A stretch of DNA of 64,000 nt from an uncultured Gammaproteobacteria bacterium (GTDB taxonomy: Bacteria; Pseudomonadota; Gammaproteobacteria; Pseudomonadales; Pseudohongiellaceae), in assembly GCA_913061515.1 (NCBI GenBank), contig CAJXSF010000010.1:5808-69807 (forward strand), given 5' to 3'. The notes below the pieces were generated by a model, which was given only the letters and a program-made list of their open reading frames with translations, ran no database searches and had not been told where the DNA came from. How positions within the stretch are numbered: the stretch's first letter is position 1; each line of letters starts with the position of its first letter. Below are positions 16,074 to 32,456 of the stretch, piece after piece. The translations under genes were made by a program, and so were the position numbers.

Positions 16074-17266
16074 GGTCTTTGAATATCCCAATCGACGCGC
16101 ATGACAACTGAGCCAACCCCTTTATTGGGTTTGACTTGAATAAGCTTGCTCAACTTGGTTTCGTACCAAAGCAAGCCGCTCTCCTCTGCTACCCCGCCAA
16201 TCACATAGAACTCGCCTACACGCATCGAGATGGCATTGACGCGTATACGCGCGGTGATGATCTCACCCTTTTTAAAGGGGCCCTTAGGCACGTCGTCACG
16301 GTCGGTCGTTAGGTAAGCGGACATAATTTCATCGAGGGTGCGCATGATGGCGAAGCCGAAATTACACATTAGATTGTCTTTGCGAATCTCGATTTTCGAC
16401 TCTAGGATAATATCGCTTAGGGGCTCGACCTCTTCGATCTCTTCGCCATCGAGATTCTTCACTACGGTGTACAACACGCGGCAGTCTTTAATATTGCGAT
16501 CGTCGACTGTGTTGATATCAGGCGCTTCATGGGGCTCAACGTTCTTGCTGTTGCAGTAATCCTCGTACCGTGCCACAACGTGATGGCTCTCGCCAATCTC
16601 GCGGATACGGCCTTTCTCTAACCAGATTGCCGTGTCACACAGCTCTTGCACGTGGTACATCGAATGGCTACAGAAAATCATGGTTTTATTCTGTTTGCGA
16701 AACTCATTCATGCGCTCGACGCATTTCTTTTGAAACGCGATGTCACCAACGGAAAGAGCCTCGTCGATTACCAATACATCAGGGTTTACCATTGTGGCAA
16801 TGGAGAATGCCAAGCGCACATACATGCCAGAGGAATACGTTTTTACAGGGCGATCGATGAAGTCGCCAAGTTCAGAAAACGCGATGATCTCTTTTTCTAA
16901 GCCTGCAATATCGGCATCGGGAACACCAAGCAATGCGGCATTGAGGTAGATGTTGCGCCGCCCTGTAAACTCAGGATGAAAGCCGGCCCCTAATTCAAGA
17001 AGCGCGGCAACCTGGCCCTTTATCGAAATGCTGCCCGAGCTTGGCTGCAAGGTGCCGACTAAGAGTTTCATTAAAGTGGACTTGCCAGCGCCGTTGTCGC
17101 CAATAATGCCAAGGCTACGCCCTTCTAGCACTGAGAAAGAAATATCTTGTAAGACATGAAAATTCTTATGCCGTGGCTTGCGCAGCAATAGTTCCAACAA
17201 CCGGTCTTGTGGGCGGTCGTAGATCCTAAAATCTTTGTGTACGTTCTCTACTGAAATGCTGTGCAT
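16070..17266 (-). CDS. wzt: O-antigen/polysaccharide ABC exporter ATP-binding protein (Wzt-like) with extra C-terminal domain
   Basis: Walker A GDNGAGKSTLMKLL, signature YSSGMYVRLAFS and Walker B LVIDEAL. About 150 extra C-terminal residues, as in glycan-cap-binding Wzt proteins. Confidence 0.85.
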   Translation of the reverse strand: MHSISVENVHKDFRIYDRPQDRLLELLLRKPRHKNFHVLQDISFSVLEGRSLGIIGDNGAGKSTLMKLLVGTLQPSSGSISIKGQVAALLELGAGFHPEFTGRRNIYLNAALLGVPDADIAGLEKEIIAFSELGDFIDRPVKTYSSGMYVRLAFSIATMVNPDVLVIDEALSVGDIAFQKKCVERMNEFRKQNKTMIFCSHSMYHVQELCDTAIWLEKGRIREIGESHHVVARYEDYCNSKNVEPHEAPDINTVDDRNIKDCRVLYTVVKNLDGEEIEEVEPLSDIILESKIEIRKDNLMCNFGFAIMRTLDEIMSAYLTTDRDDVPKGPFKKGEIITARIRVNAISMRVGEFYVIGGVAEESGLLWYETKLSKLIQVKPNKGVGSVVMRVDWDIQRP

Positions 17267-17285
17267 TGCTTTAGATCTCTAACAT

Positions 17286-18089
17286 TTACAACACGTCCCC
17301 GAAGGCGTGTCGAATACGCATAAACACCCAGCCACCGATGCAGTAAGTTAAAAGTGACACAGGAACAATAATTTGAAAGCTCGTCATATCGAAAGTGCCA
17401 AGTAGCACTAGATTTCGATACATCTCAACAAAGCTATGCATGGGGTTAAGCAGCAATAAAGGCTGATACTCAACGGGAATCAAAGAGATTGGGTAAACGA
17501 TAGGCGTTAGGAAAAACCAAGCGGTAAGCGTGAGTGACACGATCTGCTGAATATCGCGCAGAAAGACACAGAAGGCTGAAAGGATTGCCACTAACCCCAT
17601 CGTGAACAAGAATTGGAAAAAGAAGACAATAGGCAAGAGCAGCCAGAGGCTATTGAAATAACCTTGCGTGCTCAAATAGACCAAGAACAGCGACAAGGCA
17701 ATGCCGTGGATCATATAAGGCACGATTGTGCCTACGCCTGGGATGATCTGCACCGGGAACATCACCTTGGTAATCAATGGGGCTTTCTCTAACAATAAGC
17801 CGCTGGCCCGCCCCATGGCATCGCCAAAGGCAAACCAAGGCAGGTAGCCCATCATCATGAAGACAACGAATGGGGTGTTGCCATACTCCACTGGCATTGG
17901 TGCGCGAAACACCACGCTGAATACAAAGGAGTAGATAAGAATATTGACAATAGGCGTGATGAACAACCACACCATGCCCCCGAAGGAGCCTGCAAACTGC
18001 CCCGTAAAATCTTGGCGCACAAAATTATGAAAGAGCCGGTAATGAACAATGGGGGCAAACAGCCACTGACGAAGCAGAGAGAAAAACAT
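17286..18089 (-). CDS. wzm: ABC-2 type polysaccharide exporter permease (Wzm-like)
   Basis: About 267 aa with six predicted TM helices, immediately upstream of wzt. Confidence 0.85.
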   Translation of the reverse strand: MFFSLLRQWLFAPIVHYRLFHNFVRQDFTGQFAGSFGGMVWLFITPIVNILIYSFVFSVVFRAPMPVEYGNTPFVVFMMMGYLPWFAFGDAMGRASGLLLEKAPLITKVMFPVQIIPGVGTIVPYMIHGIALSLFLVYLSTQGYFNSLWLLLPIVFFFQFLFTMGLVAILSAFCVFLRDIQQIVSLTLTAWFFLTPIVYPISLIPVEYQPLLLLNPMHSFVEMYRNLVLLGTFDMTSFQIIVPVSLLTYCIGGWVFMRIRHAFGDVL

Positions 18090-18126: not shown

Positions 18127-19500
18127 TTAATTCTGCGGAGCAACTAACCAATCGCCCACTTCGGACAGGTCTTCGGCACTGAGTGTGCCCGCTTCGCGCT
18201 TAAGAAGCAGATTGTATCGAATGTGGTCGTATCTTGCGCGTTGTAAATCACGTTCTGCACGAAAGCGTGCGCCCAAAGCGTTCAATACATCGACACTTGT
18301 CACTGTGCCAAGCTCAAAACCACGTTGCTGCGCCGTGTACGAAAGCGCGGTGGACTCGGCGAGACGTTCGGCTGCGCGCACCCGCAGCTCGCTGGCTTTG
18401 ACTTGCAAATAGGCGGTACGCGTACGCTCAATGATTTCTAATTCGATTTGGCGCAGTTCATTTTCGGCGATGCGGTGTTGGCTGCGCGCTTCGCTTACGC
18501 CAGCTTTACTACGGCCGCTGGTAAAGATGGGGATTTGTACGTCAACGCCGATGTAGTCTGTGGTTGTGCGGTTGGCCTGCAAGGCGTTGTCAAAACCAAT
18601 ATTCGAATCCTGCTTGTTTAAGATCAAAGAGACGCGAGGCATATAGGCGCCTTTGCTTTCAGAGATACGTTTGTCGGCAGCCTGCACGGCAAACTCTCGG
18701 GCCAGTATCTGATGGTTTCCGCTACGTGCGCGCTCTAACCATGATTCAATGCTGCCCTCTAAGGCGGGAATATCGATTTCTTCATCAAGGCGGTAGAGTT
18801 CGCCAACAGTAACGCCAGACACGGCGCGCAGTTGCTCTTTCGCAATGGCTAGCTCACTCTCTAAATTTAACTGTTCGGCTTGCACGGCGGCCTGTCTGGC
18901 CTGCACTTCATACAAATCGGTGATTTGCACAGCTTGCAGATTGTACAGGCTTTCGACTTGCGCAAGCTGGCGATTGACCGCATCTAGCTCCGCCGTCACT
19001 GAAGTCACGGCGTCTTGAGCCTGTAGAACAGCGAAATATTTCTCAGCCACATCGGTAAGCACAAAGGCCAGCTGCCCGAAGTACTCCGCCTCGGATTGCT
19101 CCTCTATCAAATAGGCTCTGCCGCGGGCATTAAAGGCCTGCCAATTAAACAATACTTGGGTGAGCTGTAAGGAATAGCGCTCACCGCGATACTTTGTGGT
19201 TTGATTGATTGCATCTTGGGTTTGCGTGTTATCTGATACGCTAGCGTTTGCATTGACCTGTGGCATTAGCTGCCCATTCGCTGCTCGTTTTCTTGCAGAG
19301 CTGATATTCAAGCGCTCTCGCGATATTCGCAGCTCAGGGCTGTAGTCCAATGCCGAGGTAAAGAAATCCTCTAGCGTGCTGCCTTGCACAATAATGCGCG
19401 TCACGGCTTGCTCTTCAAGCTCCGCTGCCATCATTGGCGTAAGCAGGCTTGCGCCAAGGCTTAGAGTAAGGGCTAGAATAATTAATCGCTTCATAGACAT
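18127..19500 (-). CDS. TolC-family type I secretion outer-membrane factor
   Basis: Signal peptide and two-repeat OMF architecture with long coiled helices. ATG 19498-19500 overlaps the hlyD-like stop by 1 nt. Confidence 0.85.
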   Translation of the reverse strand: MSMKRLIILALTLSLGASLLTPMMAAELEEQAVTRIIVQGSTLEDFFTSALDYSPELRISRERLNISSARKRAANGQLMPQVNANASVSDNTQTQDAINQTTKYRGERYSLQLTQVLFNWQAFNARGRAYLIEEQSEAEYFGQLAFVLTDVAEKYFAVLQAQDAVTSVTAELDAVNRQLAQVESLYNLQAVQITDLYEVQARQAAVQAEQLNLESELAIAKEQLRAVSGVTVGELYRLDEEIDIPALEGSIESWLERARSGNHQILAREFAVQAADKRISESKGAYMPRVSLILNKQDSNIGFDNALQANRTTTDYIGVDVQIPIFTSGRSKAGVSEARSQHRIAENELRQIELEIIERTRTAYLQVKASELRVRAAERLAESTALSYTAQQRGFELGTVTSVDVLNALGARFRAERDLQRARYDHIRYNLLLKREAGTLSAEDLSEVGDWLVAPQN

Positions 19501-20867
19501 CAATCTTCACGCAAGCTGCGAGCAAGCGCGTTAGAGAATGGTTTCATCACATACTGCAAGAAAGTGCGTGAGCCGGAAGTGATAAAGACTTCGGCAGGCA
19601 TGCCTGGCACTAGTATTAGGCCATCAAGATCTTCCATTCCCTCTGGTGTCACAGCAACCCGTGCCAAATAGTAAGTCATTCCTGTTTGTCGATCGCTCAT
19701 CGCATCGGCTGAGACAGAAATGACACTGCCGGTAATCGTAGGCACAGAGCTGCCAAAACTAGAAAAACGAATGGTTGCCTCTTGCCCAGTCTGCACACGG
19801 TCAATGTCACCTAGTGAAACTCTCGCTTCGATGATTAATTCGTCGCTCTGAGGCACGACCTCACCAATGGGGGCACCTGGCCCGATGACGCCACCCTCGT
19901 TGTGAAACTGCATGCCACTGACGATGCCAGCCTCGGGTGCACGTATCACTGTGCGGTCTACAACGTCGGTTAAAGCAATCATGCGCTCGCGAATATCTTT
20001 CAGGCGCGTTTGTGTTTCGCTCAATTGTGTCACGACTTCTGAGCGGAATTCGTTTTCTGTTTGTAGAATTTGTAACTGGGTTTCACCAATCTGCATTTCT
20101 GTCGATGAGATAGTGGAGACAAGTTCGGCCGCTTCGCCGTTATAGGCCGCATGGCTGCGCTCTAATTCGCGCAAGCGCAATTTATCCGAAAACCCTTCCT
20201 CTAAAAGGATACGCACATCGGCTAGTTCCTCGCCGAATGAGGTCGCCAGTGCCTCTTTGCTCTGTTTCATCGCTTGCAGGCCACTCACGCGTGAGCGTAG
20301 TTGTTCTATGCGTTGCTCCAAGACGGCTATACTGCCTTCTCGTGATCTTTTGCGCGCTAGAAAAATTTGATCCTGTGCCGCCATCTCGGCGACGGCATTC
20401 GGATTGCTTGAAGACAACGATGCCGGATAGTTGATTGATTCGAGGTCGTCCCGCTCCGCAATCAAGCGTGCCTCTAGTGCTGTTAAGGCAATGAACTGCG
20501 CACTCGCAATCTCAAGTTGCGCTTGCGACTGTGTATTGTCTAGTTCGATTAAAGGCGCGCCTGCCTCAACATAGTCACCATCGCGCGCATAGATGCGTTT
20601 GATCATGCCGCCTTCTAAGTGCTGCAAAACTTTTTTGTAGGAGCGAACGGTCACAGAGCCTGGTGCGTGTGCTGCGCCTTCAATAGGTGCCACGGTTGCC
20701 CATACGCCAAAAACGCCGAACACAAGGAACACAATGATCAGTCCGATGCGGCGCGGCGAATCCATGTTTGTTTCAACTTCTATGGTCTGGGCCGCGCGCG
20801 CGGGAGCACTGGGCTTGTCAGCCGTCATCGCGGGCAAATTGTCCTGAGCCTTTTTAATATCTGTCAC
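19500..20867 (-). CDS. HlyD-family type I secretion membrane-fusion protein
   Basis: N-terminal TM (IGLIIVFLVFGVFGVWATVAPI), a long coiled-coil and C-terminal barrel motifs (LVPGMPAEVFI). Confidence 0.9.
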   Translation of the reverse strand: MTDIKKAQDNLPAMTADKPSAPARAAQTIEVETNMDSPRRIGLIIVFLVFGVFGVWATVAPIEGAAHAPGSVTVRSYKKVLQHLEGGMIKRIYARDGDYVEAGAPLIELDNTQSQAQLEIASAQFIALTALEARLIAERDDLESINYPASLSSSNPNAVAEMAAQDQIFLARKRSREGSIAVLEQRIEQLRSRVSGLQAMKQSKEALATSFGEELADVRILLEEGFSDKLRLRELERSHAAYNGEAAELVSTISSTEMQIGETQLQILQTENEFRSEVVTQLSETQTRLKDIRERMIALTDVVDRTVIRAPEAGIVSGMQFHNEGGVIGPGAPIGEVVPQSDELIIEARVSLGDIDRVQTGQEATIRFSSFGSSVPTITGSVISVSADAMSDRQTGMTYYLARVAVTPEGMEDLDGLILVPGMPAEVFITSGSRTFLQYVMKPFSNALARSLRED

Positions 20868-20903
20868 TGTTTATATCCCAAACTAGTAAATTCTGTGTGT
20901 GCG

Positions 20904-22613
20904 CTATGCCTGCGCGGCTTTGTTCTGCGGCATGAGACTGGCAAGCACTTGCTCGCGCGGGCCGAAGCTCTTCGCCGTGCCGTCTTTCATCACCAAAATT
21001 TTGTCGGTGACCATCAACACCATTGTGCGGTGTGTGATTACGATGACTGTGCAACCTTGTTCTTTAACGCGTTGAAGTGCCAGCACCAATTCGCGTTCGC
21101 CTTGGTCGTCGAGATTGGAGTTCGGTTCATCGAGCACTAATAATTTAGGGTTGCCATAAACTGCTCTGGCAAGCCCAATACGCTGTCGTTGTCCGCCTGA
21201 CAAAATGCCACCGCTACCGCCAATGACCGTGTCATAACCGTTAGGTAAACGCAGAATTAGTTCATGTACACCGGCAAGCTGTGCTGCTTGCACCACCTTC
21301 TCAGGGTCTAGCTCACCAAAACGGCTGATGTTTTCTGAGATGGAGCCATCGAAAAGTTCGATATCTTGGGGTAAGTAACCGATGTGCGGGCCAAGCTCGC
21401 GGCGATCCCAAGCGAAAATATCGGCACCGTCCAAGCGGACCTTGCCACCGCCGGTTGGCCAAATCCCTAAAAGGGCGCGAGCAAGGCTCGATTTTCCAGA
21501 GGCGCTAGGGCCGACTATGCCAAGAATATCGCCAGCATCTAATTCAAAGCCAACGCCTGCCACCACGGGTGCTTTTGCGCCTGGTGGTGTGACATATACG
21601 CCTTCAACGCTGATCTGCCCAGTAGGGGCAGGCAATGACATTCTTTCTTCATCTTTAGGAATACGCTCTAATAATTGACCGAGGCGTTCGTATTGAGCGC
21701 GCGCGACAGAGAAGCCCTTCCAGGTGCCTACTAATAGGTCAATTGGGGCTAGAGCGCGGCCAAGAAGTAGCGAGCCGGCAATCACCATGCCTGGGGAGAT
21801 TTCTTGTTCCAAGGCGAGCAAAGCCCCTAAGCCAAGAATCAAAGACTGTGTGATCATACGAAAAGATTTAGAGAAGGTGCCAAGTAGCCCAGCACGACGG
21901 CTAGCGTCAGTTTGCAAGAACAATACTTTGTCGGCACGCTCTTGTTGGCGATGACGGATGCCATCGATCATGCCCATGGCTGCGATCACTTCGGAGTTGC
22001 GCATGCTGCCATTGATCTGGTTATTAACCCAGTTTGCCTCTACGTTGGCTTCTTTGAGTTTTTCGTTAGTGGCTTTTTCAGTGGCAAAGGCAAAAGCAAT
22101 CATCACAATGCCTGAGATGATTCCCACCACTCCAAACCATGGGTGAAACATAAACATCACGGCAATATAGATAGGGAACCAAGGGGCATCGAAAAATGCG
22201 AATAGCCCATTGCCAGTCATAAACTGGCGCAACTGTGATAGGTCGCTATTGGGTTGGGCTCCGCCGCCCATGCCGCCTGAATAAAGGTTTTGCTTAAAGC
22301 TGGCGTCGAATACGCGATTGCGCAGTCCAGTCTCGATTTTATTACTAGCGCTTGTCAGTATCATGGTGCGAACCCATTCGAAACCGCCCATCGCTGCAAG
22401 CAAGAACACCATAATAATTGTCAATGTGCCAAGAGTGGATAAGCTGCCACTAGACATCACTCGATCATATACTTGCAACATGTACAGAACAGGCACAAGC
22501 ATCAAGATATTGATGGCAGCGCTGAATGCCCCCGCATAGATGAAATAATGACGGACGGCCTTGAAAGCCTCGTAGAGCTCTTTGTATCTAACTTTGTTTT
22601 TTGGATCGTTCAT
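20904..22613 (-). CDS. Type I secretion ABC transporter, PrtD/RsaD type (no C39 peptidase domain)
   Basis: Six-TM domain plus an NBD with GPSASGKSSLARAL, LSGGQRQRIGLARA and LLVLDEP. About 569 aa. Confidence 0.92.
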   Translation of the reverse strand: MNDPKNKVRYKELYEAFKAVRHYFIYAGAFSAAINILMLVPVLYMLQVYDRVMSSGSLSTLGTLTIIMVFLLAAMGGFEWVRTMILTSASNKIETGLRNRVFDASFKQNLYSGGMGGGAQPNSDLSQLRQFMTGNGLFAFFDAPWFPIYIAVMFMFHPWFGVVGIISGIVMIAFAFATEKATNEKLKEANVEANWVNNQINGSMRNSEVIAAMGMIDGIRHRQQERADKVLFLQTDASRRAGLLGTFSKSFRMITQSLILGLGALLALEQEISPGMVIAGSLLLGRALAPIDLLVGTWKGFSVARAQYERLGQLLERIPKDEERMSLPAPTGQISVEGVYVTPPGAKAPVVAGVGFELDAGDILGIVGPSASGKSSLARALLGIWPTGGGKVRLDGADIFAWDRRELGPHIGYLPQDIELFDGSISENISRFGELDPEKVVQAAQLAGVHELILRLPNGYDTVIGGSGGILSGGQRQRIGLARAVYGNPKLLVLDEPNSNLDDQGERELVLALQRVKEQGCTVIVITHRTMVLMVTDKILVMKDGTAKSFGPREQVLASLMPQNKAAQA

Positions 22614-22747: not shown

Positions 22748-23554
22748 CTATAGCTCTTGCTTACCTTCTGCTAAGGCTTGCAAGGTGTCGGGGTCAATAA
22801 TGAGCAAGCAACCGGGCCCGTCGCGTTTCACTATTTGCTTGGCCTGTAGTGTTTGAAACACCCGCGTGACGGTTTCGCGGCTCAGGCTTAGCATGATGGC
22901 AATCTCCATATGCGTTGGCGGATTATTGATCATCGATGGCACTTGGCCATTTTTCTCTTTGGCAGTAAGTAACATCCACAATTGGCAGCACACCCGTTGG
23001 CTGATGTTGGGCAGGCCCAAGAGCGAGCGTTGTCGCGTCATTTGGCGCAATCGCGCGGCAAGCCTTTCTCCTAATACCTTAAAGATATTTGGCTGTTTCA
23101 GCATAATTTCGCGCAGGCTTTCCATCGGAATAAACACTGTGACGGCTGCGGTTAAGGCGATGACATACTCGGGCTGCGTGCCGTGATCAAATAAGCCTAA
23201 TTCGCCGCAAAAGTCGCCTGGTTCCACGAAATAAAGGCCCACTTCCCGGCCATCAATGGTAAAATCTACCCCCTGCAAGCGCCCTTCAAATAAAAAGCAC
23301 ACAGCGTCTTCATGAATTCCCGCATTTAATACAATGCCACGGCGGGCAAATTTGCGCAGGCTAGCCAGCGGCGCAAGTTCACTCAATATTTCGTGAGGCA
23401 AGGGCTTTAATATTGGAAAAGTGCTTAGCAGCTCTGGGGTTACCACGATACAGTTTTTGTCCCTGATGGCTGGATTCGGCGACGCTCCGGCATTATAGGA
23501 GGTTGCTGATGAATAGCAAACGCCAGTACTTGCGTGCCGTGTGACTGTAATCAC
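22748..23554 (-). CDS. Crp/Fnr-family transcriptional regulator
   Basis: cNMP-binding-like beta-roll (GDFCGELGLF) and a C-terminal HTH SRETVTRVFQTL that matches the E. coli CRP RETVGR recognition helix. GTG start, so the start is uncertain. Confidence 0.8.
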   Translation of the reverse strand: MITVTRHASTGVCYSSATSYNAGASPNPAIRDKNCIVVTPELLSTFPILKPLPHEILSELAPLASLRKFARRGIVLNAGIHEDAVCFLFEGRLQGVDFTIDGREVGLYFVEPGDFCGELGLFDHGTQPEYVIALTAAVTVFIPMESLREIMLKQPNIFKVLGERLAARLRQMTRQRSLLGLPNISQRVCCQLWMLLTAKEKNGQVPSMINNPPTHMEIAIMLSLSRETVTRVFQTLQAKQIVKRDGPGCLLIIDPDTLQALAEGKQEL

Positions 23555-23647
23555 CCAGTGATGAATTAGCTTGCCGTATCATTGTCAAAGTCAATCTAGG
23601 TCAGTTGCGTTTTACTGGCCCTTTACTCCCAAGCGGGGGAAGAGAAT

Positions 23648-25042
23648 ATGAAACTCACATTACAAGCAGTTCGCCCACAATTCGCGTTGCGCTTTGCGCT
23701 GCTGCCATTGCTGTTTGCCTTTAACACGGTGAATGCGCAAACCGTTAGCAGCGTGGGTGAAGTCAGTTTGGTGCTTGGCAAGGCCTATATCAAATCAGGC
23801 GATAGCCAAGAGCGTGTGCGCGCTGGCATGAAAGTCAGCGTGAGCGATGAAATTATCACGGAAGCCAATGGCCATGTGCATATTCAGTTTGTCGATGACG
23901 CCTTGGTCAGTGTTCGCCCTGATAGCAAGTTAGAAATTCAACGCTATGATTTCGATGCAGCCAATCCTGCTAACTCCTCTATTAAACTAAACCTGCTAGA
24001 GGGTATCGCGCGTTCTATTTCTGGCGATGGCGCCCATGCAGCGCGCGATCGTTTCCGCATGAACACCCCTATTGCTGCAATTGGTGTGCGTGGCACAGAC
24101 TTCGTCGTTAGTGCTTCGAGCCAATCCGTTCGTGCTCTAGTCAATGAGGGAGCCATTGTCATGGCGCCCTTCTCCAACGATTGCTTAGCAACTGCATTTG
24201 GGCCTTGTGCGGCGAATGCCGTTGAGCTTTCCCAAGATTCTTTGCAGATGGTCGCCATCGAGGGTGACGTCGCCTTGCCAAGATTAATGCCCGCCTCTGA
24301 CGAGCGTGGCAATTTATCTGAGGCTGGCGAAGTGGCTGTTGCAGAGGCGGACACTCGCACTGAAGACAAAGCCGTAGGCTCAGATGTTTACCTAGAAAAC
24401 GTCACTTCCTTAAAAGTGGCCGAAGAGGCCAATATTGTTGCGGCAGCCAAGCCTAAACCACCGGTTGTGACGCCACCTGTGACTGTATTGCCTGACTTTA
24501 CCCCAGAGATTGCTGTTGCCTCCTCGGCACTTGAAAGCAATAACTTGATTTGGGGGCGGTGGTCAGGCCGTGACGAAGGCTATGGCGACTTGGAGCGCAT
24601 CACTGTCTCTGAAGAAGTGGCAAGCGCCGGGCGCGATATCATGATTCTAAACGACAACTACCGTTTGTTCCGCGATAGTAATGGCAGCACCTTAGTTAAC
24701 CCTAATCTCAATGTGGTGAGCTTTGCTTTGAACAGTGCCCAGGCCTTCTATCACTCAGGTTCTGGCGTAATGGCCATGGAGGTTAATAACGGTTCTTTGC
24801 AGGTCAATTTTTGGGCCAAAAGTTTCGCTACGCAGTTGGGGCTTAGCTCTGCAGCCTCTGGGGCAGTCGATTTCTCTGCTTCGGGAATTTATGTCGATGG
24901 TGGTTTCTTCTATAACAACTCCGACACCCAGATTATTCGCGGTGCGGTAAGTTTGGATGGCACAGAGGCGGGTTATGTATTCGAAAAACAACTCGGTACT
25001 GACACTAGCGTTGAAGGGATCACCTTGTGGGGTGCGCCGTAG
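23648..25042 (+). CDS. Secreted FecR-domain protein with C-terminal TbpB-like beta-barrel signature
   Basis: Sec signal (...FNTVNA/QT, no lipobox). FecR-like segment (GHVHIQFVDDALVSVRPDSKLEI ... IAAIGVRGTDFVV). The C-terminal about 130 aa has a strand pattern ending GAVSLDGTEAGYVFEK...GITLWGAP. Confidence 0.65.
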   Translation: MKLTLQAVRPQFALRFALLPLLFAFNTVNAQTVSSVGEVSLVLGKAYIKSGDSQERVRAGMKVSVSDEIITEANGHVHIQFVDDALVSVRPDSKLEIQRYDFDAANPANSSIKLNLLEGIARSISGDGAHAARDRFRMNTPIAAIGVRGTDFVVSASSQSVRALVNEGAIVMAPFSNDCLATAFGPCAANAVELSQDSLQMVAIEGDVALPRLMPASDERGNLSEAGEVAVAEADTRTEDKAVGSDVYLENVTSLKVAEEANIVAAAKPKPPVVTPPVTVLPDFTPEIAVASSALESNNLIWGRWSGRDEGYGDLERITVSEEVASAGRDIMILNDNYRLFRDSNGSTLVNPNLNVVSFALNSAQAFYHSGSGVMAMEVNNGSLQVNFWAKSFATQLGLSSAASGAVDFSASGIYVDGGFFYNNSDTQIIRGAVSLDGTEAGYVFEKQLGTDTSVEGITLWGAP

Positions 25043-25044
25043 TC

Positions 25045-27042
25045 ATGAGCAGCACTCGCCGACTTAATCCTCTTAGCCAAGGCCTTGCGTATTTAGTGCG
25101 CTTAGTGCCCATGAACGCGCGTCTTTTGATGCTGGCGTTGGCGGCAGCATTGACGGCGTTGATCGTGACTGTGTTCGATGACAGCCTAGAAACCTTGCAA
25201 GAAAATTTGGGTGCCCTGGGCTGGACTTTAAACGTCGATAACACCTTAGAGCAGCGTTTCAGCATTATTGCTATCGATGAGAAAAGTGTGGCTCAAGAAG
25301 GCGCTTGGCCCTGGCCGCGTGACACCATGGCGCGCTTGGTCGCCTCGTTAACGCAAGCCGGCGTGTCTTTGCAATTGCACGATATTGTCTTCCCTGAGTC
25401 TTCTGCCGGTGATGATGCCTTGGCCAGCGCTTTGCAGGCCGCCCCGGGTGCGGTACTAGCGCAACTACCGGTGTTAGGATCAGAGCAAGTGCTGCGCACC
25501 GGCAGTTTGACCCATGCAGTCACTGGCATTAATTGTGAAAGTGGCCTGCCAGCGACCTCTAATTACCTTGGCAACAACGCTAGTTTTTTGAATATTCCGA
25601 AAGGGCATATCGCACCGATCGTGTCAGCAGATGGCGCCATCCGCAAGATGCCTGGCTTGATTTGTGTTGATGGGCAGGCTTATCCCGCGTTGCCAATTAG
25701 TGCATTTTTACAGGCTTTGAACACGCAAGTATGGGCAGCCACGCTTAGCCCAACTGAATCGTTATTTGGGCCTGCGCAAACGCTGCAGCTTGATGCCTAC
25801 CCAGGTTTACGTATTCCGCTAGATGCGCAAGGCAATCTACGTATTTCTTACCGCAATAGCCCTAGTGCCTATCGCGTAATTTCCGCAGCCGATGTGCTCA
25901 ATGGCGATATTGACGCGGGCATGCTCGAAAATAGCTGGGTGTTGATTGGCGCTACCGCATTTGGCATTGGCGATATCGTTCCGACTCCTTATAGCGGCGC
26001 GACTCAGGGTGTTGAGTTGCAAGCACGTATTCTGGGCAGCTTGCTCGATACCAATGTGCCTTATACGCCAAGCGGCGCATGGCTGTTTTTGCTGGCCTTA
26101 TGCGCCATCAGTGCGGCCGTCCTCTTTGCCTTGGCCGGTGCCCGCGAGCGCTTTGCGAGTTATGGGCTGCCTATAGCGGGGGCTGTTTTGCCTTTGCTGG
26201 CACTAGGCCTGCATATCGAACTGCTTAATATGAGCAATATATGGCTTGGTTGGGTATCCCCCGCCCTGTTCAGCGTGTGCGCGGCAAGTGCCTTGATGTT
26301 GCTTGAGCAGGCAAGAGTGCGCAATGAGCGCAGCCGTGTGTTTGGCAATCTCAATGCCTATTTGCCAAGCGATGTGGCCAAAGAAATTGCCTTTAGTTTG
26401 CCCAGCTCTAGCGTCAATGCGCGCCGCAGTGAAGTCACCTTATTGAGCGCCGACCTGCGTAACTTCTCTGCCTTTAGCGAGGCGCGTCCCCCAGAAGAGT
26501 CAGCCGCACTGCTGCATTACTTCTTCGTGCGTGCTGCTGAGATTGTCGAGCAGCATGGCGGGCGTATTCATGAGTTTAAAGGCGATGGTCTGTTGGCTGT
26601 TTGGGATGGCCACGATGCGCGCGCCGCACAACAAGCCTTGAGTGCCGCCCAATCAATGGAGGGCTCAATCGCTCGTGATATGCCGCAAGCCCCGCCGGAA
26701 GGTTTAGAGCCTTTGGCATTAGGGATTGGTATAGAGCAAGGCCCAGTGTTGATAGGCTCTATTGGCCCAGCACAGCGCCGAACGCATACCTTATTGGGCG
26801 ATACTGTCACCATCGCTTTGCGTATTCAGGAAATGACAACCGAACTTGCGTTGCCGATCTTGGTGGGCGAATGCGCTGCGCGCAATTTGCAAGGTCAAAA
26901 GCTTGAATCTCAAGGTAGTTACCTTTTGACTGGTTTGAATACGCCCCATGTGTTGTTTTCGCCTCCGCTAGACGCTCTTCCTGTTCGCCGCGCAAAGTCT
27001 GAATCTGTGACGCTCACAGTATTATCGGGCGGCAAGCGCTGA
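25045..27042 (+). CDS. CHASE2-domain class III nucleotide (adenylate/guanylate) cyclase
   Basis: TM, an about 300-aa extracytoplasmic segment, three TMs, then a cyclase homology domain (LLSADLRNFS, EFKGDGLLAVW, LLGDTVTIALRIQE). ATG at 25045 lies 2 nt after the fecR-domain stop. Confidence 0.85.
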   Translation: MSSTRRLNPLSQGLAYLVRLVPMNARLLMLALAAALTALIVTVFDDSLETLQENLGALGWTLNVDNTLEQRFSIIAIDEKSVAQEGAWPWPRDTMARLVASLTQAGVSLQLHDIVFPESSAGDDALASALQAAPGAVLAQLPVLGSEQVLRTGSLTHAVTGINCESGLPATSNYLGNNASFLNIPKGHIAPIVSADGAIRKMPGLICVDGQAYPALPISAFLQALNTQVWAATLSPTESLFGPAQTLQLDAYPGLRIPLDAQGNLRISYRNSPSAYRVISAADVLNGDIDAGMLENSWVLIGATAFGIGDIVPTPYSGATQGVELQARILGSLLDTNVPYTPSGAWLFLLALCAISAAVLFALAGARERFASYGLPIAGAVLPLLALGLHIELLNMSNIWLGWVSPALFSVCAASALMLLEQARVRNERSRVFGNLNAYLPSDVAKEIAFSLPSSSVNARRSEVTLLSADLRNFSAFSEARPPEESAALLHYFFVRAAEIVEQHGGRIHEFKGDGLLAVWDGHDARAAQQALSAAQSMEGSIARDMPQAPPEGLEPLALGIGIEQGPVLIGSIGPAQRRTHTLLGDTVTIALRIQEMTTELALPILVGECAARNLQGQKLESQGSYLLTGLNTPHVLFSPPLDALPVRRAKSESVTLTVLSGGKR

Positions 27043-27194
27043 TATTCTAGCTAGGTATTTTCAAGACAGATTCCCGTCACATAAAAGGGTGTTTTGTTAT
27101 TGCTTGTGGCGCCTTGTTTCATGATAATTGCGCAAATAAATTTACATGACATACGCTTCGATATGTCTGTCGCCTAGCCGGACCCACAGACACT

Positions 27195-28502
27195 ATGCGC
27201 TGGTCAATCCTCACTTTTAGTTTCTTGCTCCCCTTATCTGCGCACGCGTGCCCCGATCTGCAATCGTTTTATCAATATGATGACGACGTGGAGTCACAAA
27301 TTGAGTTGGAGTCTGCTTTAGCTCCCTTGATGAGTGAGTGTTTGCGCAGCCCTGAATTTTTTGCGCTTTACGGCGCGGCTTTAATGGAGACGGGCAAGCT
27401 CTCAGTTGCGCTGGAGATGCTCGAACGCGCCTTATTGCTTGACGCTAACAATGGCTCTGCGCTGATCGACTATGCGCAAGCGCTATACTTGCGCGGACAA
27501 TTGTTCTCGGCACTCGATCTCAATCAGCAACTCAGCCAGCGCCAAGATCTGCCTGCCAATATCGCAACTCTAGTCGCAGAGCGCGAAGAGCGCTGGCGCC
27601 GTGATACTCGTGCTTATGGGGTGCAGCTAGATGTGCTGGCCGGTTTTGACAACAACCTCAACGGGGCGCCAGACCCAAATCAAATTACCCTTACGCTTTC
27701 AGGCGAGCCAGTCATATTGACACTCAACCCAGAGTTTCAGGCGATTAGCGGGCCCTATCTAAACCTACGATTGGGCGGGCAATTTCAACAGCTGGCTTCT
27801 GACCACCAACACAATGTAACGGGGGAGATAAGAAGCCGAATCAGTGAAGACGCCGCTTCGGACCTCATTCAGGCCTCTGCCCATTACAATTACTTGTTAC
27901 CTAAACGGGACAATGCTTGGCAGTTTGGTGGAGGGATGAGCCATCTATTCTTCGGTGGCAACCCGCTTTACACCGCCGTGGATAGCAATGTTCGCTATCA
28001 AAAAATAACTTCCAGGAGTTGTACCCGCCGGTATGAGTTGGCTGGGCAATATCAGCTGTACAACGATCAAAGCCGTTTGAACTCGATCGAGAGCAAGCTT
28101 AGTGCAGGCTTGGATTGCCCAGTGCAGGCTTTGGGCTTGCCTACCTTGTTGGGCGGCGAGTTGGCCATAGTCCATAGCGCAGCCCTCAAAGATGGCCGCC
28201 CTGGTGGGGACCGCTTGGGCTGGCAATTCAATCTTGCTTGGCAGTTTCCGCTTTTAGGCGGCATGTTGACTAGCCAGCTTAGCCATACAGAATTGGACGA
28301 CCAAAAGGGCTATAGCGCCTTGCTAGATGACGGCGCACAACGCTGGGTAAAACGTAGCTTCGCGCTGCTGCAATACAGGCAAATGCTGCAGCCTAACTTG
28401 GCGTTTATGTTCAATATTTATCATCAAAACCAGCATAGCAATATCGAACTTTTTGACAGCGTCGACAGCACCCTCGAACTTGGCATAAGCGCTAGCTTTT
28501 AA
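27195..28502 (+). CDS. Outer-membrane protein: N-terminal TPR-like region + C-terminal beta-barrel (DUF560/Slam-like architecture)
   Basis: Signal peptide (LLPLSAHA), TPR-like helices (ALYGAALMETGKLSVALEMLERALLLDANNGSALIDYAQALY), then an amphipathic strand pattern with a terminal Phe (...LGISASF). The family assignment is by eye only. Confidence 0.45.
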   Translation: MRWSILTFSFLLPLSAHACPDLQSFYQYDDDVESQIELESALAPLMSECLRSPEFFALYGAALMETGKLSVALEMLERALLLDANNGSALIDYAQALYLRGQLFSALDLNQQLSQRQDLPANIATLVAEREERWRRDTRAYGVQLDVLAGFDNNLNGAPDPNQITLTLSGEPVILTLNPEFQAISGPYLNLRLGGQFQQLASDHQHNVTGEIRSRISEDAASDLIQASAHYNYLLPKRDNAWQFGGGMSHLFFGGNPLYTAVDSNVRYQKITSRSCTRRYELAGQYQLYNDQSRLNSIESKLSAGLDCPVQALGLPTLLGGELAIVHSAALKDGRPGGDRLGWQFNLAWQFPLLGGMLTSQLSHTELDDQKGYSALLDDGAQRWVKRSFALLQYRQMLQPNLAFMFNIYHQNQHSNIELFDSVDSTLELGISASF

Positions 28503-28674: not shown

Positions 28675-28690
28675 TGTGACTGTAGTCACA
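28675..28690. promoter_or_regulatory. Perfect CRP-type palindrome TGTGA-CTGTAG-TCACA upstream of the S-layer-like gene
   Basis: Read directly. A TATCCT hexamer at 28712-28717 would place the box near -41.5 (class II geometry). The ATG is at 28806. Confidence 0.6.
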
Positions 28691-28805
28691 GGGAAGTGAA
28701 AGCGAACTGCGTATCCTTGGCACAACCGAATGGGGTCATCCGCTGTTGTAGGCGTGTCACAATCGGATAAAACAAATTGGATTAAAATTTTAAGGAGTTC
28801 TAACA

Positions 28806-31562
28806 ATGGCGATTACCGTCGAAGCTCGTACCAATCTCGTAGGCCTCGTAGTAGGTATGTTTGGTGCTGCACCAGGTGCAAGTGTTTTGTCTGACCTAGT
28901 AGCATCTTACGAAGCAGGCGCAACAATCAAGCAAATCGCAGCTAACCTTGCGAACACTACTGAATTCACAGGCATTTTCCCAACTTTCCTTACTAACGAA
29001 GAGTTTGCAACTAAAGTTGTTAATCAACTAGTTGGTAGCGAAGTTGTTCAAGCTGAAAAAGACGCAGCCGTTACTACTCTAGTAGGCATGCTAAACGGTG
29101 GCGCAAGCCGCACAGATGTATTCGTTGACGCAATCGCTGCTGTTGACGCTCTACAATCTACTAACGCTGCATGGGCAAATGCCGGTGCTGCGTTCGATAA
29201 CAAAGTCGAAGTCGCAGTTTACTACTCTGTTGAAAAACAACTAAGTGGTGCATCTTTGCAAGCGCTTCAAAACGTAGTGGCTTCAGTTACTAGCAGCGCA
29301 GCTTCAGTAACTAGTGCGAAAGCATCTGTAGACAACGTACAGAATCCAGGTTCTACGTTCTCATTCACTACCGGTGTGGATGCACTCGTCGGCGCTTCTG
29401 CTGATGACGTGTTCAATGCTACAGTAACTAGTACCTCTGCAACTTTGGGTGCGCTTGACACTGTTGATGGCGGTGCAGGTAACGACACTATGAATGTAGT
29501 GGAGACTGGAGTAGCCGCCAACGCGGATTACGTCCTTCCAACTGGACTTTCAATAAAGAATGTAGAAACTTTGAAAGTTACAACTAATGGCGCCCTAGGC
29601 ACACTGGCTGGTACTAACTTTGACGTGTCTGCTATTGCAGGTTTGACTTCATTTGTAGGCGCTGCTGCTGGTGCAGGTACTGCGACTGGTAGTGAAATAA
29701 AGGCAGCTGGAACTACTGATGTTACTTTAACTGTTGCAGGCGCAAATGCTGCAACTGTTAATGGTGGTAAGGATGTACATGTAAATGCAGGCACTGGTGG
29801 TGTAACTACTATCGCTGGTTTGGCTTCTGGTACTTCTTCTGCTTCTGTTAAAGGTGGTGGTAATGTTGTTGTATCTGGTAATAGCATGAAGAGCCTAACA
29901 TTGGATGCTATCGCTGGTACAACTGCGGGCTTTACTTCTACTGGTGGTGCAACTGTTACTGTTAAAAACCAGACTTCTGCATTGGCCACAACTGTGACTA
30001 ATGCAACATCAACTGCGCTAACTGTTAACGTTGATGGCGTTGGTTATACTGCTGTTGGTGGTACTACACCAGTTGCCGTTTCTGTTGCTGCTGGCTCAGC
30101 TGCTGCAACTATCAACCTAAATGCTACTGGCAATAAGAGCAGTGTTACTGTTTCAGGCGCTGCCGCAAAGACATTGAACATTACTGGTAGTGCTGCACTA
30201 ACATTGGCCAGTCCTCTTGCAACTGCGACTAAAATTGATGGCTCTGCCGCAACAGGCGCTTTGACTCTTGGCGATTTGAACGCTGGTACTCTTACAGTTA
30301 CTACTGGCTCGGGCGATGATTCTCTAGCTGTTCAAGCAACAACGGCAGCTACTGTAACTACTGGAGCTGGTAACGACACAGTGACATTAAAATCTGCTCT
30401 TGCTGCAGCTTCAAAAATCACTCTAGGTGCAGGCAACGACACAGTGTTGTTCGGCACTGGTGGTAGTGTTGCAACTTCAACTTCAACAGTTATTGATGGC
30501 GGAGACGGTGACGACTCTGTATCTGCTAACCTAATCAATGCTGGAAATGCGACTCAGTTTGTAAACTTTGAGAAAGTGAACTTAGATAGCGCTACTGGTC
30601 TTGATCTTGCTTTGTTGACTGGTAACACTATTTCTGGTTTGACTATCAGTGGCGCTGCTGCTGCTAACGCAACTTATCAGAATGTAAAGCTTGCCAACTC
30701 ATTGACTGTTGATTATGTGGGTTTAAACACAAACACAAATACATTGACTTTCTCTGACGCAAGTGGAACTTCTGACACTTACAGCATCACTTTCGCAGGT
30801 GTTGGTGCTTCTACTCCAACTAGTGCAACAGTGGGCGCCGGCACAGTTGCTGCTCAAGGTATTGAGAACTTCAGTATCGTTTCTGGTGGGACAAAAGCCT
30901 GGAACTCCTTGACTCTTGGTACAAACACTGTAGCGAAAACAGTTACCATTACGGGTGACGCTAAACTGGATTTAGCATTTACTGCGTTTGGTACTGCGGG
31001 TGCATCTGGTGTTACTTCAATTGATGGCTCTGCAGCAACTGGTGCCTTGTCTATCAATGCAGCTAACATTGGCAAAGCAACTGCTGGACTCACAATCAAA
31101 GGTGGTTCTGCAGCAGACACGCTAACTGCTAGTACAGTATCTGTTAGTCTAACTGGTGGTGCTGGTGCAGACTCGTTCAATGTTGCAGCTGCTCTTGTTG
31201 GCACTGCTACTCCTGCAGGTTTGGTAACTACTACAATTACTGATGCAACAGCTGGTGATAAGATTATCTTCGCTGACTTAGGTACAGAAGTATTTACTTC
31301 TACTAAGATTAACGTAAGTACAGCAACTGCATTGATTGGCGGTACAACAAATGCCCTAGACTTAGCGGCTGCAGCTGCAGACTCTAGTACAAACGGCCAA
31401 ATCACTTGGTTCCAGTATGCTGGTGACACGTATGTTGTTCAGGAGCTGGGCGCAAATGCAGCTGTAATTGGCACTGACGATGTCGTTGTTAAGTTAACTG
31501 GTCTAATTGATCTGTCTACTGCAACTTACGACGCAACGACTAACGCACTAACTTTGGTGTAA
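28806..31562 (+). CDS. Large Cys-free Ala/Thr/Gly/Val/Ser-rich surface-layer / RTX-like protein, probable T1SS substrate
   Basis: Strong SD AAGGAG and no signal peptide. Sparse GGxGxD-like motifs (GGAGNDTMN, GAGNDTVTL, GAGNDTVLF, GGDGDDSVS, GGAGADSFN), repeated IDGSAATGAL, and an acidic hydrophobic C-terminus (...VVVKLTGLIDLSTATYDATTNALTLV). A T1SS lies nearby. Confidence 0.7.
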   Translation: MAITVEARTNLVGLVVGMFGAAPGASVLSDLVASYEAGATIKQIAANLANTTEFTGIFPTFLTNEEFATKVVNQLVGSEVVQAEKDAAVTTLVGMLNGGASRTDVFVDAIAAVDALQSTNAAWANAGAAFDNKVEVAVYYSVEKQLSGASLQALQNVVASVTSSAASVTSAKASVDNVQNPGSTFSFTTGVDALVGASADDVFNATVTSTSATLGALDTVDGGAGNDTMNVVETGVAANADYVLPTGLSIKNVETLKVTTNGALGTLAGTNFDVSAIAGLTSFVGAAAGAGTATGSEIKAAGTTDVTLTVAGANAATVNGGKDVHVNAGTGGVTTIAGLASGTSSASVKGGGNVVVSGNSMKSLTLDAIAGTTAGFTSTGGATVTVKNQTSALATTVTNATSTALTVNVDGVGYTAVGGTTPVAVSVAAGSAAATINLNATGNKSSVTVSGAAAKTLNITGSAALTLASPLATATKIDGSAATGALTLGDLNAGTLTVTTGSGDDSLAVQATTAATVTTGAGNDTVTLKSALAAASKITLGAGNDTVLFGTGGSVATSTSTVIDGGDGDDSVSANLINAGNATQFVNFEKVNLDSATGLDLALLTGNTISGLTISGAAAANATYQNVKLANSLTVDYVGLNTNTNTLTFSDASGTSDTYSITFAGVGASTPTSATVGAGTVAAQGIENFSIVSGGTKAWNSLTLGTNTVAKTVTITGDAKLDLAFTAFGTAGASGVTSIDGSAATGALSINAANIGKATAGLTIKGGSAADTLTASTVSVSLTGGAGADSFNVAAALVGTATPAGLVTTTITDATAGDKIIFADLGTEVFTSTKINVSTATALIGGTTNALDLAAAAADSSTNGQITWFQYAGDTYVVQELGANAAVIGTDDVVVKLTGLIDLSTATYDATTNALTLV

Positions 31563-31685: not shown

Positions 31686-32456
31686 CTAAACGCCATCAAA
31701 GTTTATATTACCTTCGTCACCAGAAAGCCCGAACTGTAAGTCTTTGACGCTTGGGGGGTTGCTTTGAGACTTCGCAGCGCTATCGATTAAAACTTCTAAA
31801 TTTTGCATCGAAAGTAACTGGCAATAGATCAAAGGTAAGGCTCCTGCATCGCGCAAGCGGGTTAATTGATTGGAGTCCAGAGAATTAAACTTAACTTCAT
31901 TAATTCGAAAAATGCCCTCTACCAATACATCTTGTTCGCCTTTTTTTACAGTTATAGGCCAACTCTCGTACAAATCTAATTCGTTGAGTAAATTACAAAT
32001 TGAATGCGTAACAACGTGATTCTCAAAAACATGAATTAAAAAATTTAGAATATCGTTAATCGATGGGCTTGGTTCACCTTCGCTATCGAAAAAAGGATGC
32101 CCTTCAGTTGTACTTAAAGAAGCACTTGAGCTATCTACGCACAAAGCTTTTTTATTTTCTTCTAAATGATTCAATGCAAATGGGTAGCCACGATAAGCAG
32201 CCGGAATATACCCTGCTAACCAACTCCCTGTACTATCGACAAAATAATTATTACCCGCTTCTAAACTTTGTAGAGCAAACAATCCAAAACCATTGTTCGA
32301 TCGACTAAATACTATAGGAATATGCAGTGCAGCTTTAGGGACCTCTAGAGTCACCAAAGGACACATAGCTTCATTAGCTGCAAATGCAAAATTATTAGTT
32401 GGATTCCATCGTAAATTCTTATGGAGCTCTTTTGAAACTACTTCATATGTTGACAT
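31686..32456 (-). CDS. SapC-family protein
   Basis: About 256 aa. The N-terminal pattern (VSKELHKNLRWNP..NFAFAANEAMCPLVTLEVPKAALHIPIVF) matches what I recall of the SapC family. The gene is visibly AT-richer than its neighbours. Confidence 0.65.
   Translation of the reverse strand: MSTYEVVSKELHKNLRWNPTNNFAFAANEAMCPLVTLEVPKAALHIPIVFSRSNNGFGLFALQSLEAGNNYFVDSTGSWLAGYIPAAYRGYPFALNHLEENKKALCVDSSSASLSTTEGHPFFDSEGEPSPSINDILNFLIHVFENHVVTHSICNLLNELDLYESWPITVKKGEQDVLVEGIFRINEVKFNSLDSNQLTRLRDAGALPLIYCQLLSMQNLEVLIDSAAKSQSNPPSVKDLQFGLSGDEGNINFDGV

Follow-up and report, generated by a model that had tools for sequence, protein, structure and literature searches.

A candidate trans-envelope signalling cassette with a CHASE2 cyclase and a Crp-family regulator beside an RsaA-like S-layer gene in Pseudohongiellaceae

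This work concerns a block of four genes from an uncultured gammaproteobacterium of the Pseudohongiellaceae. The window, by which we mean the whole stretch of DNA that was analysed, is 64,000 nucleotides long (assembly GCA_913061515.1, contig CAJXSF010000010.1, positions 5,808 to 69,807 of the forward strand); its sequence is identical to that of a 400-kb metagenomic scaffold, and its relatives are Pseudohongiellaceae. The block holds a Crp/Fnr-family regulator of 232 amino acids on the minus strand (22748-23446; Pfam cNMP_binding 1.4e-12, HTH_Crp_2 1.9e-13). Divergent from it on the plus strand are a secreted FecR-domain protein of 464 amino acids (23648-25042; Pfam FecR 2.1e-12), a CHASE2 class III nucleotidyl cyclase (25045-27042, in an open reading frame that runs from 25027; Pfam CHASE2 6.5e-43, Guanylate_cyc 8.9e-12) and a predicted outer-membrane protein with TPRs and a beta-barrel (27195-28502; sub-threshold Pfam TPR matches only, and an AlphaFold2 model). 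We believe, with moderate confidence, that these genes are a portable trans-envelope cassette, a relay of the NsrA type known from S. meliloti that has been split and leads into the CHASE2 cyclase and a dedicated Crp-family regulator, and that the cassette drives the surface layer (S-layer) gene next to it. The established part of this argument is made up of the domains, the fold predictions, the gene order, the conserved Crp boxes and the homology of the neighbouring protein to RsaA.

An earlier note, made from the sequence alone, had drawn these four open reading frames, and our own listing, translations and Pfam domain calls reproduce them at the coordinates it gave. It was also right that the regulator is divergent and that only 2 nt separate the FecR gene, which ends in TAG at 25040-25042, from the cyclase ATG at 25045. 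For the regulator we use the ATG at 23446 that gene callers chose on identical metagenomic contigs. The open reading frame itself reaches a GTG at 23554, and this longer version would overrun the first of the two Crp boxes described below.

The first line of evidence is gene order. One genome per species was scanned with a profile of the barrel protein, 70 loci were fetched, and gene order was scored by BLAST of the window proteins against the open reading frames of each locus. The earlier note had staked its proposal on the genes being neighbours in other genomes, and they are: a regulator gene divergent from a FecR gene, a CHASE2 cyclase gene and a TPR-barrel gene, in that order, is found in all complete loci of the 70. 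These include two Marinomonas species whose barrel proteins reach 29-32% identity and whose flanks carry glycosyltransferase, acyltransferase, OmpA-family and Tad-pilus genes; neither type I secretion system (T1SS) genes (ABC, HlyD) nor an RsaA gene stands beside the block in these two loci. Since the four-gene order is kept amid such unrelated flanks, the genes travel as a unit. The same order is found in two metagenomic loci, L085 and L086, whose barrel proteins are only about 25% identical, and in a third, L074, a distant member of the barrel family comes directly after a CHASE2 cyclase. On a Methyloprofundus plasmid the regulator is divergent from a FecR protein and a CHASE2 cyclase, with no adjacent barrel gene. 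Several other distant members of the family lie on contigs too short for their context to be judged. A further protein search, with the distant alignment of the family, brought back for the most part the close Pseudohongiella proteins found before and gave distant members no taxonomic assignment. We considered chance synteny and rejected it, because the order is kept in all complete loci and in relatives of about 25% identity.

Two further observations on the distribution of the cassette should be recorded. In L085 it is followed by small genes of toxin-antitoxin-like type (9475-10724; ParE_toxin, HTH_3, TumE), which hints that it sits there in mobile or variable DNA. Two loci, L011 and L045, have a cassette of the Pseudohongiellaceae type in metagenome-assembled genomes labelled Klebsiella; these labels are most likely the result of mis-binning or mislabelling.

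The second line of evidence is the gene that follows. The open reading frame at 28806-31562 on the plus strand encodes a protein of 918 amino acids that matches the structures of Caulobacter RsaA (PDB 5n97/6p5t) with an E-value of 1.2e-22 over residues 397-916, and Pfam adds a weak RTX repeat. On the other side of the block, downstream of the crp-like gene and in the same direction, are the T1SS genes (18127-22613, minus strand): an ABC exporter (20904-22613; Pfam ABC_membrane/ABC_tran), a HlyD-type adaptor (19500-20867; HlyD_3) and a TolC/OEP-type gene (18127-19503; OEP). The earlier note had put the block between a T1SS and an S-layer-like gene, and both labels are sound. Of 52 loci, 49 have an RsaA homologue directly behind the barrel gene, and in almost every Pseudohongiellaceae locus with a long enough flank the ABC and HlyD genes also adjoin the block. 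Homology to the lattice domain and an adjacent T1SS are thus found together, as in RsaA-type proteins. The gene is a probable target of the module and its product a probable T1SS substrate.

The third line of evidence is a pair of Crp boxes. With no more than one mismatch allowed, TGTGA-N6-TCACA occurs exactly twice in the 64-kb window, once in each promoter region of the block. Box 1, TGTGACTGTAATCACC (23540-23555), lies in the divergent promoter region of the crp-like gene and the fecR operon. Box 2, TGTGACTGTAGTCACA (28675-28690), is a perfect palindrome and lies 116 nt upstream of the RsaA-like start codon. The number of boxes equals the chance expectation (2.09), but their placement does not, both being in the roughly 0.5 kb of promoter DNA of the block. 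An equivalent of box 1 is present in the crp/fecR intergenic region of 65 of 66 loci, and an equivalent of box 2 in 53 of 61, from 130 to 390 nt after the stop of the barrel gene. The half-sites are kept from locus to locus, with variable spacers between them, and only 23 further sites turn up in 978 kb. Boxes are also found in the distant modules L085, L086 and L082, the last being the Methyloprofundus plasmid.

The regulator fits these boxes. In the PDB it is closest to S. meliloti Clr (7pza, 7e-15) and E. coli CAP, and its recognition helix, SRETVTR, is of the CRP type and conserved among its orthologues. A recognition motif of the type RE(T/M)VGR marks the main Crp cluster (PMC10127613). 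An RE(T/M)VxR helix and TGTGA-N6-TCACA boxes by the target promoters therefore occur together here, as they should in a CRP-type system. The conserved boxes support the prediction that the regulator of the cassette controls both its own expression and the S-layer gene. As for promoters, a consensus scan finds a sigma-70-like pair for the crp-like gene (TTGCTA-16-TATAAT, 10/12, 23492-23519, minus strand), which would place box 1 at about -62. A simple promoter scan came up without a sigma-70 match at the fecR operon and likewise at the rsaA-like gene; if TATCCT at 28712-28717 were the -10 of the latter, box 2 would be near -41.5. On the Methyloprofundus plasmid a perfect TGTGATTGAAGTCACA (L082:7035-7050) precedes, by about 200 nt, a hypothetical gene of very large size that starts at 7236. 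A regulator of the same type may be controlling another surface-protein gene here.

The earlier note had not been aware of any characterised circuit of this composition. This is not correct, as the NsrA–CyaK–Clr system of S. meliloti contains the same modules. There the CHASE2 cyclases CyaD1, CyaD2 and CyaK, the outer-membrane protein NsrA and the Crp-like regulator Clr form a characterised pathway in which NsrA is required for signal transduction to CyaK, CyaD1/D2 and Clr (PMC7529298, PMC13001267), and the beta-barrel of NsrA spans residues 600-1200 (PMC7529298). The clr–cyaD1 locus also holds a stand-alone FecR protein, a Sel1-repeat protein and a phosphodiesterase (PMC5498481). In the S. 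meliloti sequence we find clr, cyaD1 and the FecR, Sel1 and phosphodiesterase genes as neighbours and, on the megaplasmid (L083:3189-6818), an NsrA-like open reading frame of 1209 amino acids directly upstream of a CyaK-type gene, with a FecR domain (8.7e-15) and TPRs at residues 438-606. We take nsrA to be gene smb20775 and to lie upstream of cyaK. Because this one chain fuses FecR, TPRs and barrel, it is a 'Rosetta stone' that leads us to read the window as a split NsrA system. To our knowledge the NsrA pathway is the only genetically dissected CHASE2 example.

The likeness is one of architecture. In both cases an outer-membrane barrel, a FecR domain and TPRs feed, or in the window would feed, into CHASE2 class III cyclases; a Crp-family regulator whose gene stands beside a cyclase gene (clr-cyaD1 in S. 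meliloti) carries, or would carry, the output; and the gene for the outer-membrane protein adjoins a cyclase gene. Even a FecR protein on its own (SMc02177) is encoded in the clr-cyaD1 locus, together with SMc02178, a periplasmic protein of Sel1/TPR-like type. All the marks of the NsrA type, a FecR domain, TPRs and an outer-membrane barrel beside a CHASE2 cyclase, are found in the window, on two polypeptides whose genes flank the cyclase gene. The differences are just as plain. NsrA is a single chain of 1209 residues with a barrel of about 600, whereas the window has separate FecR and TPR-barrel genes, a predicted 14-strand barrel with no detectable sequence similarity to that of NsrA, and an extra, TbpB-like C-terminal domain on the FecR protein. 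The cyclase has E/T/T at positions that are K/T(S)/N in the S. meliloti cyclases. The regulator lacks the R95/S96 of Clr and has a recognition helix of the main CRP cluster, and its boxes are of the TGTGA type, unlike the GTNNC...GNNAC site of Clr. The probable target is an S-layer gene rather than symbiosis genes, and there is no phosphodiesterase gene in the block. One feature of the S. meliloti locus should be noted in its own right: just upstream of the nsrA-like gene, on the minus strand (L083:2571-3494), is a gene with a PycTM domain, that of a Pycsar effector (2.5e-12), so that the NsrA–CyaK locus has as its neighbour an effector domain from cyclic-pyrimidine defence.

We picture the cassette working as follows. 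The protein with TPRs and a 14-strand barrel would sit in the outer membrane. The Sec-exported FecR protein would join it there, and its periplasmic FecR domain would relay the state of the cell surface to CHASE2. The cyclase would then make a cyclic nucleotide, for which a Glu in its active site suggests cGMP over cAMP. The divergent Crp-family regulator would respond and bind the TGTGA-N6-TCACA boxes at its own gene (and so probably act on the co-directional T1SS genes too), at the fecR-cyclase-omp operon and at the RsaA-like gene. A surface or envelope cue would thereby be coupled to the production and export of the S-layer in this lineage. The contacts between the proteins, the nucleotide made, its sensing by the regulator and the sign of the regulation are what we infer. 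We are less sure of a further step, in which the FecR protein would show its TbpB-like C-terminal barrel on the cell surface, either by way of the 14-strand barrel or with its help, and keep its FecR domain in the periplasm. The earlier note had proposed that cyclic nucleotide feeds a Crp-type regulator of the surface layer. The link from regulator to surface layer gains from the boxes by crp/fecR and by the RsaA-like gene; the feed by cAMP or cGMP can be put forward only tentatively, because the nucleotide sites of both cyclase and regulator are non-canonical.

The cyclase is the centre of this scheme and its layout is clear. A Kyte-Doolittle plot gives hydrophobic segments at residues 27-45, 347-365, about 375-393 and about 401-419, which agrees with the topology that had been claimed: one transmembrane segment, about 300 periplasmic residues, three transmembrane segments (347-419) and a catalytic domain. 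The CHASE2 domain (Pfam PF05226, 6.5e-43; nt ~25162-26103) is where it should be, between the first transmembrane segment and the bundle. CHASE2 is a widespread sensor domain for which we know of no defined ligand or activation mechanism. The catalytic domain (nt ~26422-26934) has Synechocystis Cya2 (2w01, 1.4e-23) as its best PDB match. We aligned its catalytic residues with those of Cya2, OaPAC, S. meliloti CyaD1 and CyaK and the distant module cyclases. Both metal-binding Asp residues are present (in ADLRNF and KGDG) and kept in 71 orthologues. At the position of the Lys that specifies adenine there is a Glu (HEFKGD), as in Cya2, which we take to be a guanylyl cyclase; the residue is Lys in CyaD1, CyaK, OaPAC and the Methyloprofundus cyclase and His in that of L086. 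The second base-specificity position is a Thr. Base pairs of this kind are Lys/Asp(Thr) for ATP and Glu/Cys(Gly) for GTP, and Glu/Thr is not a textbook combination. The Glu may point to cGMP over cAMP. Because the catalytic motifs are near-invariant among the 71 orthologues, we believe that the site is under selection and not decaying.

Several points weigh against our reading. The transition-state Asn is replaced by Thr in the window cyclase (GDTVTIALR) and by Thr or Ser (or Ala) in every module cyclase, and it is present in CyaD1, CyaK, Cya2 and OaPAC, among them the active S. meliloti enzymes. The catalytic Arg is kept in the window and is Gln in L086 and Methyloprofundus. With the Asn replaced, the cyclase may have low or altered activity. 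A dead cyclase had been named in advance as something that would undo the proposal; the two Asp residues and the conserved motifs speak against this, and the loss of the Asn speaks for it. The regulator raises a similar problem. It retains the Gly-Glu pair that binds ribose, and in place of the phosphate-binding Arg-Ser it has Gln-Pro. The residues that bind the cyclic phosphate are R95/S96 in Clr, equivalent to R82/S83 of CAP (PMC10127613). The motif 'QPE[YF]' is constant in 65 regulator orthologues and in the distant modules, with 'APEF' in Methyloprofundus. Canonical cyclic nucleotide binding by the regulator is doubtful because Gln-Pro replaces Arg-Ser. The comparison with NsrA has its limits too. 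An hhalign comparison of the barrel family with NsrA aligned only 47 TPR columns (E 0.02) and one of the FecR family only the FecR domain (E 0.0023), each against a single-sequence template of limited sensitivity. We rejected orthology with NsrA on this ground; the likeness is modular, not orthologous, because only the FecR and TPR parts align. The separate FecR protein of S. meliloti, SMc02177, is dispensable for signal perception there (PMC5498481). Finally, most of the synteny evidence comes from one family.

The two exported proteins bear on our reading and on the strongest alternative, and we present them in turn. The barrel protein has what had been described from its translation, TPR-like helices, a strand-rich C-terminal half and a terminal Phe. 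Its AlphaFold2 model, from an alignment of 28 sequences, has a predicted local distance difference test score (pLDDT) of 86, with helices at residues 23-136 (nt 27261-27602) and 14 beta-strands at residues 139-434 (nt 27609-28496); before these comes a signal sequence. A Foldseek search of the PDB gives BcsC first (1.6e-11; TPRs and a 16-strand barrel), and the 14-strand barrels OmpG and CymA reach TM-scores, normalised to the target, of 0.55-0.68, which is a generic barrel likeness. Neither the window protein nor its barrel half matches a Pfam barrel family at E<=10, and a sequence profile search of the PDB with the family returned TPR proteins only. The family is large and counts 1624 representatives at E<=1e-3, of which 170 remain at E<=1e-30. 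Its most conserved stretch, residues 153-185 (nt 27651-27749; DNNLNGAP...LTLSGEP..L.LNPEF, with many invariant residues), separates strand 1 from strand 2 and is left unmodelled by AlphaFold2 (pLDDT <50); it might serve as a plug or as a strand that binds a partner.

The FecR protein has three parts behind its signal sequence (residues 1-30), with boundaries taken from an alignment of 29 homologues: a FecR domain (36-200, nt 23753-24247), a variable Pro-rich linker (about 205-295) and a conserved C-terminal domain that resembles a handle and an 8-strand barrel (296-464, nt 24533-25039). It had been called a secreted protein that is not a lipoprotein, and rightly so, the basic and hydrophobic leader ending in VNA|QT with no lipobox Cys. 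The FecR region is strongly conserved in the 29 homologues. The C-terminal domain has no Pfam match even at E<=10, and no NCBIfam match among 29 orthologues and no PDB sequence match, the TbpB-type families being included in these searches. What NCBIfam does find in the 29 orthologues, LipL45/Lsa33 (the FecR domain) and retention_LapA, is confined to the N-terminal part, and a PDB profile search with the family gave no more than a weak match to 5ix9. The AlphaFold2 model is mediocre overall (pLDDT 61.5), with the C-terminal domain all-beta at about 70-89. Foldseek places TbpB first (4qq1, 1.3e-4), followed by the N-lobe of LbpB and the C-lobe of TbpB (5kkx; 161 columns, root-mean-square deviation (rmsd) 5.6), with A. 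baumannii hemophilin (7rea), fHbp and NHBA as further matches; lipocalin 8-strand barrels trail these at slightly worse E-values, and the model is of moderate quality. The TbpB-like fold is in our opinion a real lead of moderate strength.

Two observations on these proteins deserve mention. Both have invariant cysteine pairs: C179 and C187 in the FecR domain, and in the barrel protein C19, C49, C276 and C308 (codons at 27249-27251, 27339-27341, 28020-28022 and 28116-28118). Such pairs suggest disulfides, as would befit proteins that lie in the periplasm or otherwise outside the cytoplasm. Towards its N-terminus (residues 36-124, nt 23753-24020) the FecR domain also resembles the retention module of LapA and MpIBP. 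The retention_LapA model matches 29 of 29 orthologues, the best at 3e-8 and below its cut-off, and the 'cell surface anchoring domain' of MpIBP (5ix9) superposes over 63 columns with an rmsd of 0.9 and 24% identity. The FecR domain and the retention plug of T1SS adhesins may share a common fold, which is intriguing beside a T1SS.

The alternative is that the barrel protein exports the FecR protein in the manner of Slam, the type XI secretion system, so that the whole FecR protein is moved to the surface or the medium as a binding or scavenging protein and CHASE2 signalling is indirect. Slam consists of an N-terminal TPR domain and a 14-strand DUF560 barrel (PMC5449769), its substrates share a handle and an 8-strand barrel (PMC5449769), and soluble, non-lipidated ones such as hemophilin exist (PMC8406197). 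The window has, in the models, the same periplasmic TPRs followed by 14 strands, a neighbour whose C-terminal handle and 8-strand barrel may resemble those of TbpB, LbpB and hemophilin, and genes for the two that are always neighbours among the 70 loci. Sequence points the other way. The earlier note had suspected a DUF560 barrel, and this did not hold up: the window protein has no PF04575 match at E<=10, and 52 diverse members of the family, some as low as 23% identical, give none at E<=0.1; a weak TPR_Slam match appears in 5 of the 52 (best 0.016) and a weak DUF2860 match in 4. The architecture therefore matches Slam in the model while membership by sequence fails. The picture is similar for the idea that the FecR protein is a TbpB-like Slam substrate, where the predicted fold would fit and no sequence search links the C-terminal domain to such families; the Foldseek E-values are modest, and lipocalins are close behind. 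The candidate substrate also differs from Slam substrates in being no lipoprotein and in having an N-terminal FecR domain and a long linker, and the account of type XI secretion mentions neither FecR nor a cyclase (PMC8406197), to which, with a regulator, the pair in the window is coupled. FecR domains that have been characterised elsewhere are periplasmic, that of NsrA being fused to periplasmic TPRs, and export would separate FecR from CHASE2. For this reason the proposal that the outer-membrane protein exports the whole FecR protein, which then acts as co-sensor of the cyclase, is not supported: surface export is at odds in topology with a periplasmic CHASE2 partner. The Methyloprofundus plasmid has the same FecR protein with no adjacent barrel gene. 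On balance we think whole-protein export unlikely, though it deserves to be taken seriously.

A bolder combination of the two ideas would make the barrel protein a very divergent type XI (Slam-like) translocon that threads the FecR protein. The TbpB-like head would bind a ligand at the surface, the Pro-rich linker would span the barrel, the periplasmic FecR domain would gate the cyclase, and a non-canonical nucleotide or binding mode would switch the S-layer. The two proteins would then form a single receptor across the outer membrane. We consider this arrangement improbable as a whole.

About as improbable, in our judgement, is a cassette that does not signal by an ordinary cyclic nucleotide at all. 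The cyclase would be a pseudo-enzyme or make another nucleotide, and the Crp-like protein would take another effector or respond to direct contact. The replacement of the Asn by Thr or Ser in all module cyclases, that of the Arg by Gln in two, a base position that can be E, H or K, the clade-wide loss of Arg-Ser from the regulator and the conservation of its 'QPE[YF]' are what one would expect of such a system. They have to be set against the strong conservation of both metal Asp residues and their flanking motifs in the 71 orthologues, the ribose-binding Gly-Glu that is kept, and a linkage of cyclase and regulator in every locus, as with clr-cyaD1 in S. meliloti.

The remaining idea, a surface-polymer exporter of the BcsC/PgaA TPR-porin type for polysaccharide or S-layer anchoring with FecR and CHASE2 as fortuitous neighbours, draws on the BcsC match and the lipopolysaccharide (LPS)/O-antigen and S-layer genes nearby, but it is very hard to credit, as BcsC/PgaA barrels have 16 strands and not 14 (PMC8406197), the barrel gene follows a CHASE2 cyclase in unrelated contexts (Marinomonas, L074, L085, L086) and no polysaccharide synthase is coupled to it.

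We return to the split NsrA-type relay, for which two other sets of systems offer comparisons. In Campylobacterota a CHASE2 adenylate cyclase is clustered with a phosphodiesterase, an outer-membrane protein with a FecR domain and a TPR protein, and these have been proposed to form one pathway (PMC9239204). The same domain families are grouped with the cyclase there as here. That cluster is a genomic observation without a mechanism, a phosphodiesterase is present, the FecR domain is described as part of the outer-membrane protein, and no Crp boxes or S-layer link are reported (PMC9239204). In the 'BiofilmReg' operon of Burkholderia and in PA4035/PA4036 of P. aeruginosa a LysM-FecR protein accompanies a CHASE2 histidine kinase (PMC5192318). 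A secreted FecR-domain protein is again encoded directly upstream of a CHASE2 membrane sensor, but the output is by histidine kinase and response regulator rather than cyclase and Crp, the FecR protein carries LysM in place of a TbpB-like domain, and the fourth gene is a DUF4136 gene and not a TPR barrel.

The wider surroundings are those of a cell-surface locus. Wzm/Wzt-type O-antigen export genes (16070-18089) lie beyond the T1SS genes on the upstream side of the block. After the RsaA-like gene comes a SapC-family gene on the minus strand (31686-32456; PF07277 in the precomputed Pfam annotation), followed downstream by sugar-nucleotide (dTDP-sugar) genes. The name SapC derives from the S-layer locus of Campylobacter fetus. 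An RsaA homologue, a T1SS, a SapC-family gene and O-antigen/LPS genes together resemble a complete S-layer locus in this metagenome-assembled genome. The resemblance to RsaA and RsaD/E/F of Caulobacter extends to homology over about 520 residues, an adjacent T1SS of the ABC/HlyD/TolC type and LPS/O-antigen genes nearby. It ends at the cassette, since we know of no dedicated envelope-sensing cyclase/Crp module described for the control of rsaA.

The same logic of FecR, TPRs, barrel, CHASE2 and Crp is now found in free-living marine gammaproteobacteria. The parts are on separate genes, which makes them easier to dissect, and they come with a conserved cis-regulatory read-out, two Crp boxes of which one stands before an RsaA-type S-layer gene. 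Two points interest us most: the unusual conserved residues at the nucleotide sites of cyclase and regulator, which make one ask what nucleotide the system employs, and the chance that the barrel of the FecR protein is displayed in a Slam-like way. We believe the cassette offers a tractable system for learning how FecR domains talk to CHASE2, and it may also provide a link to Slam-type surface display. If our reading is true, it would be a first dedicated signalling input for S-layer expression.

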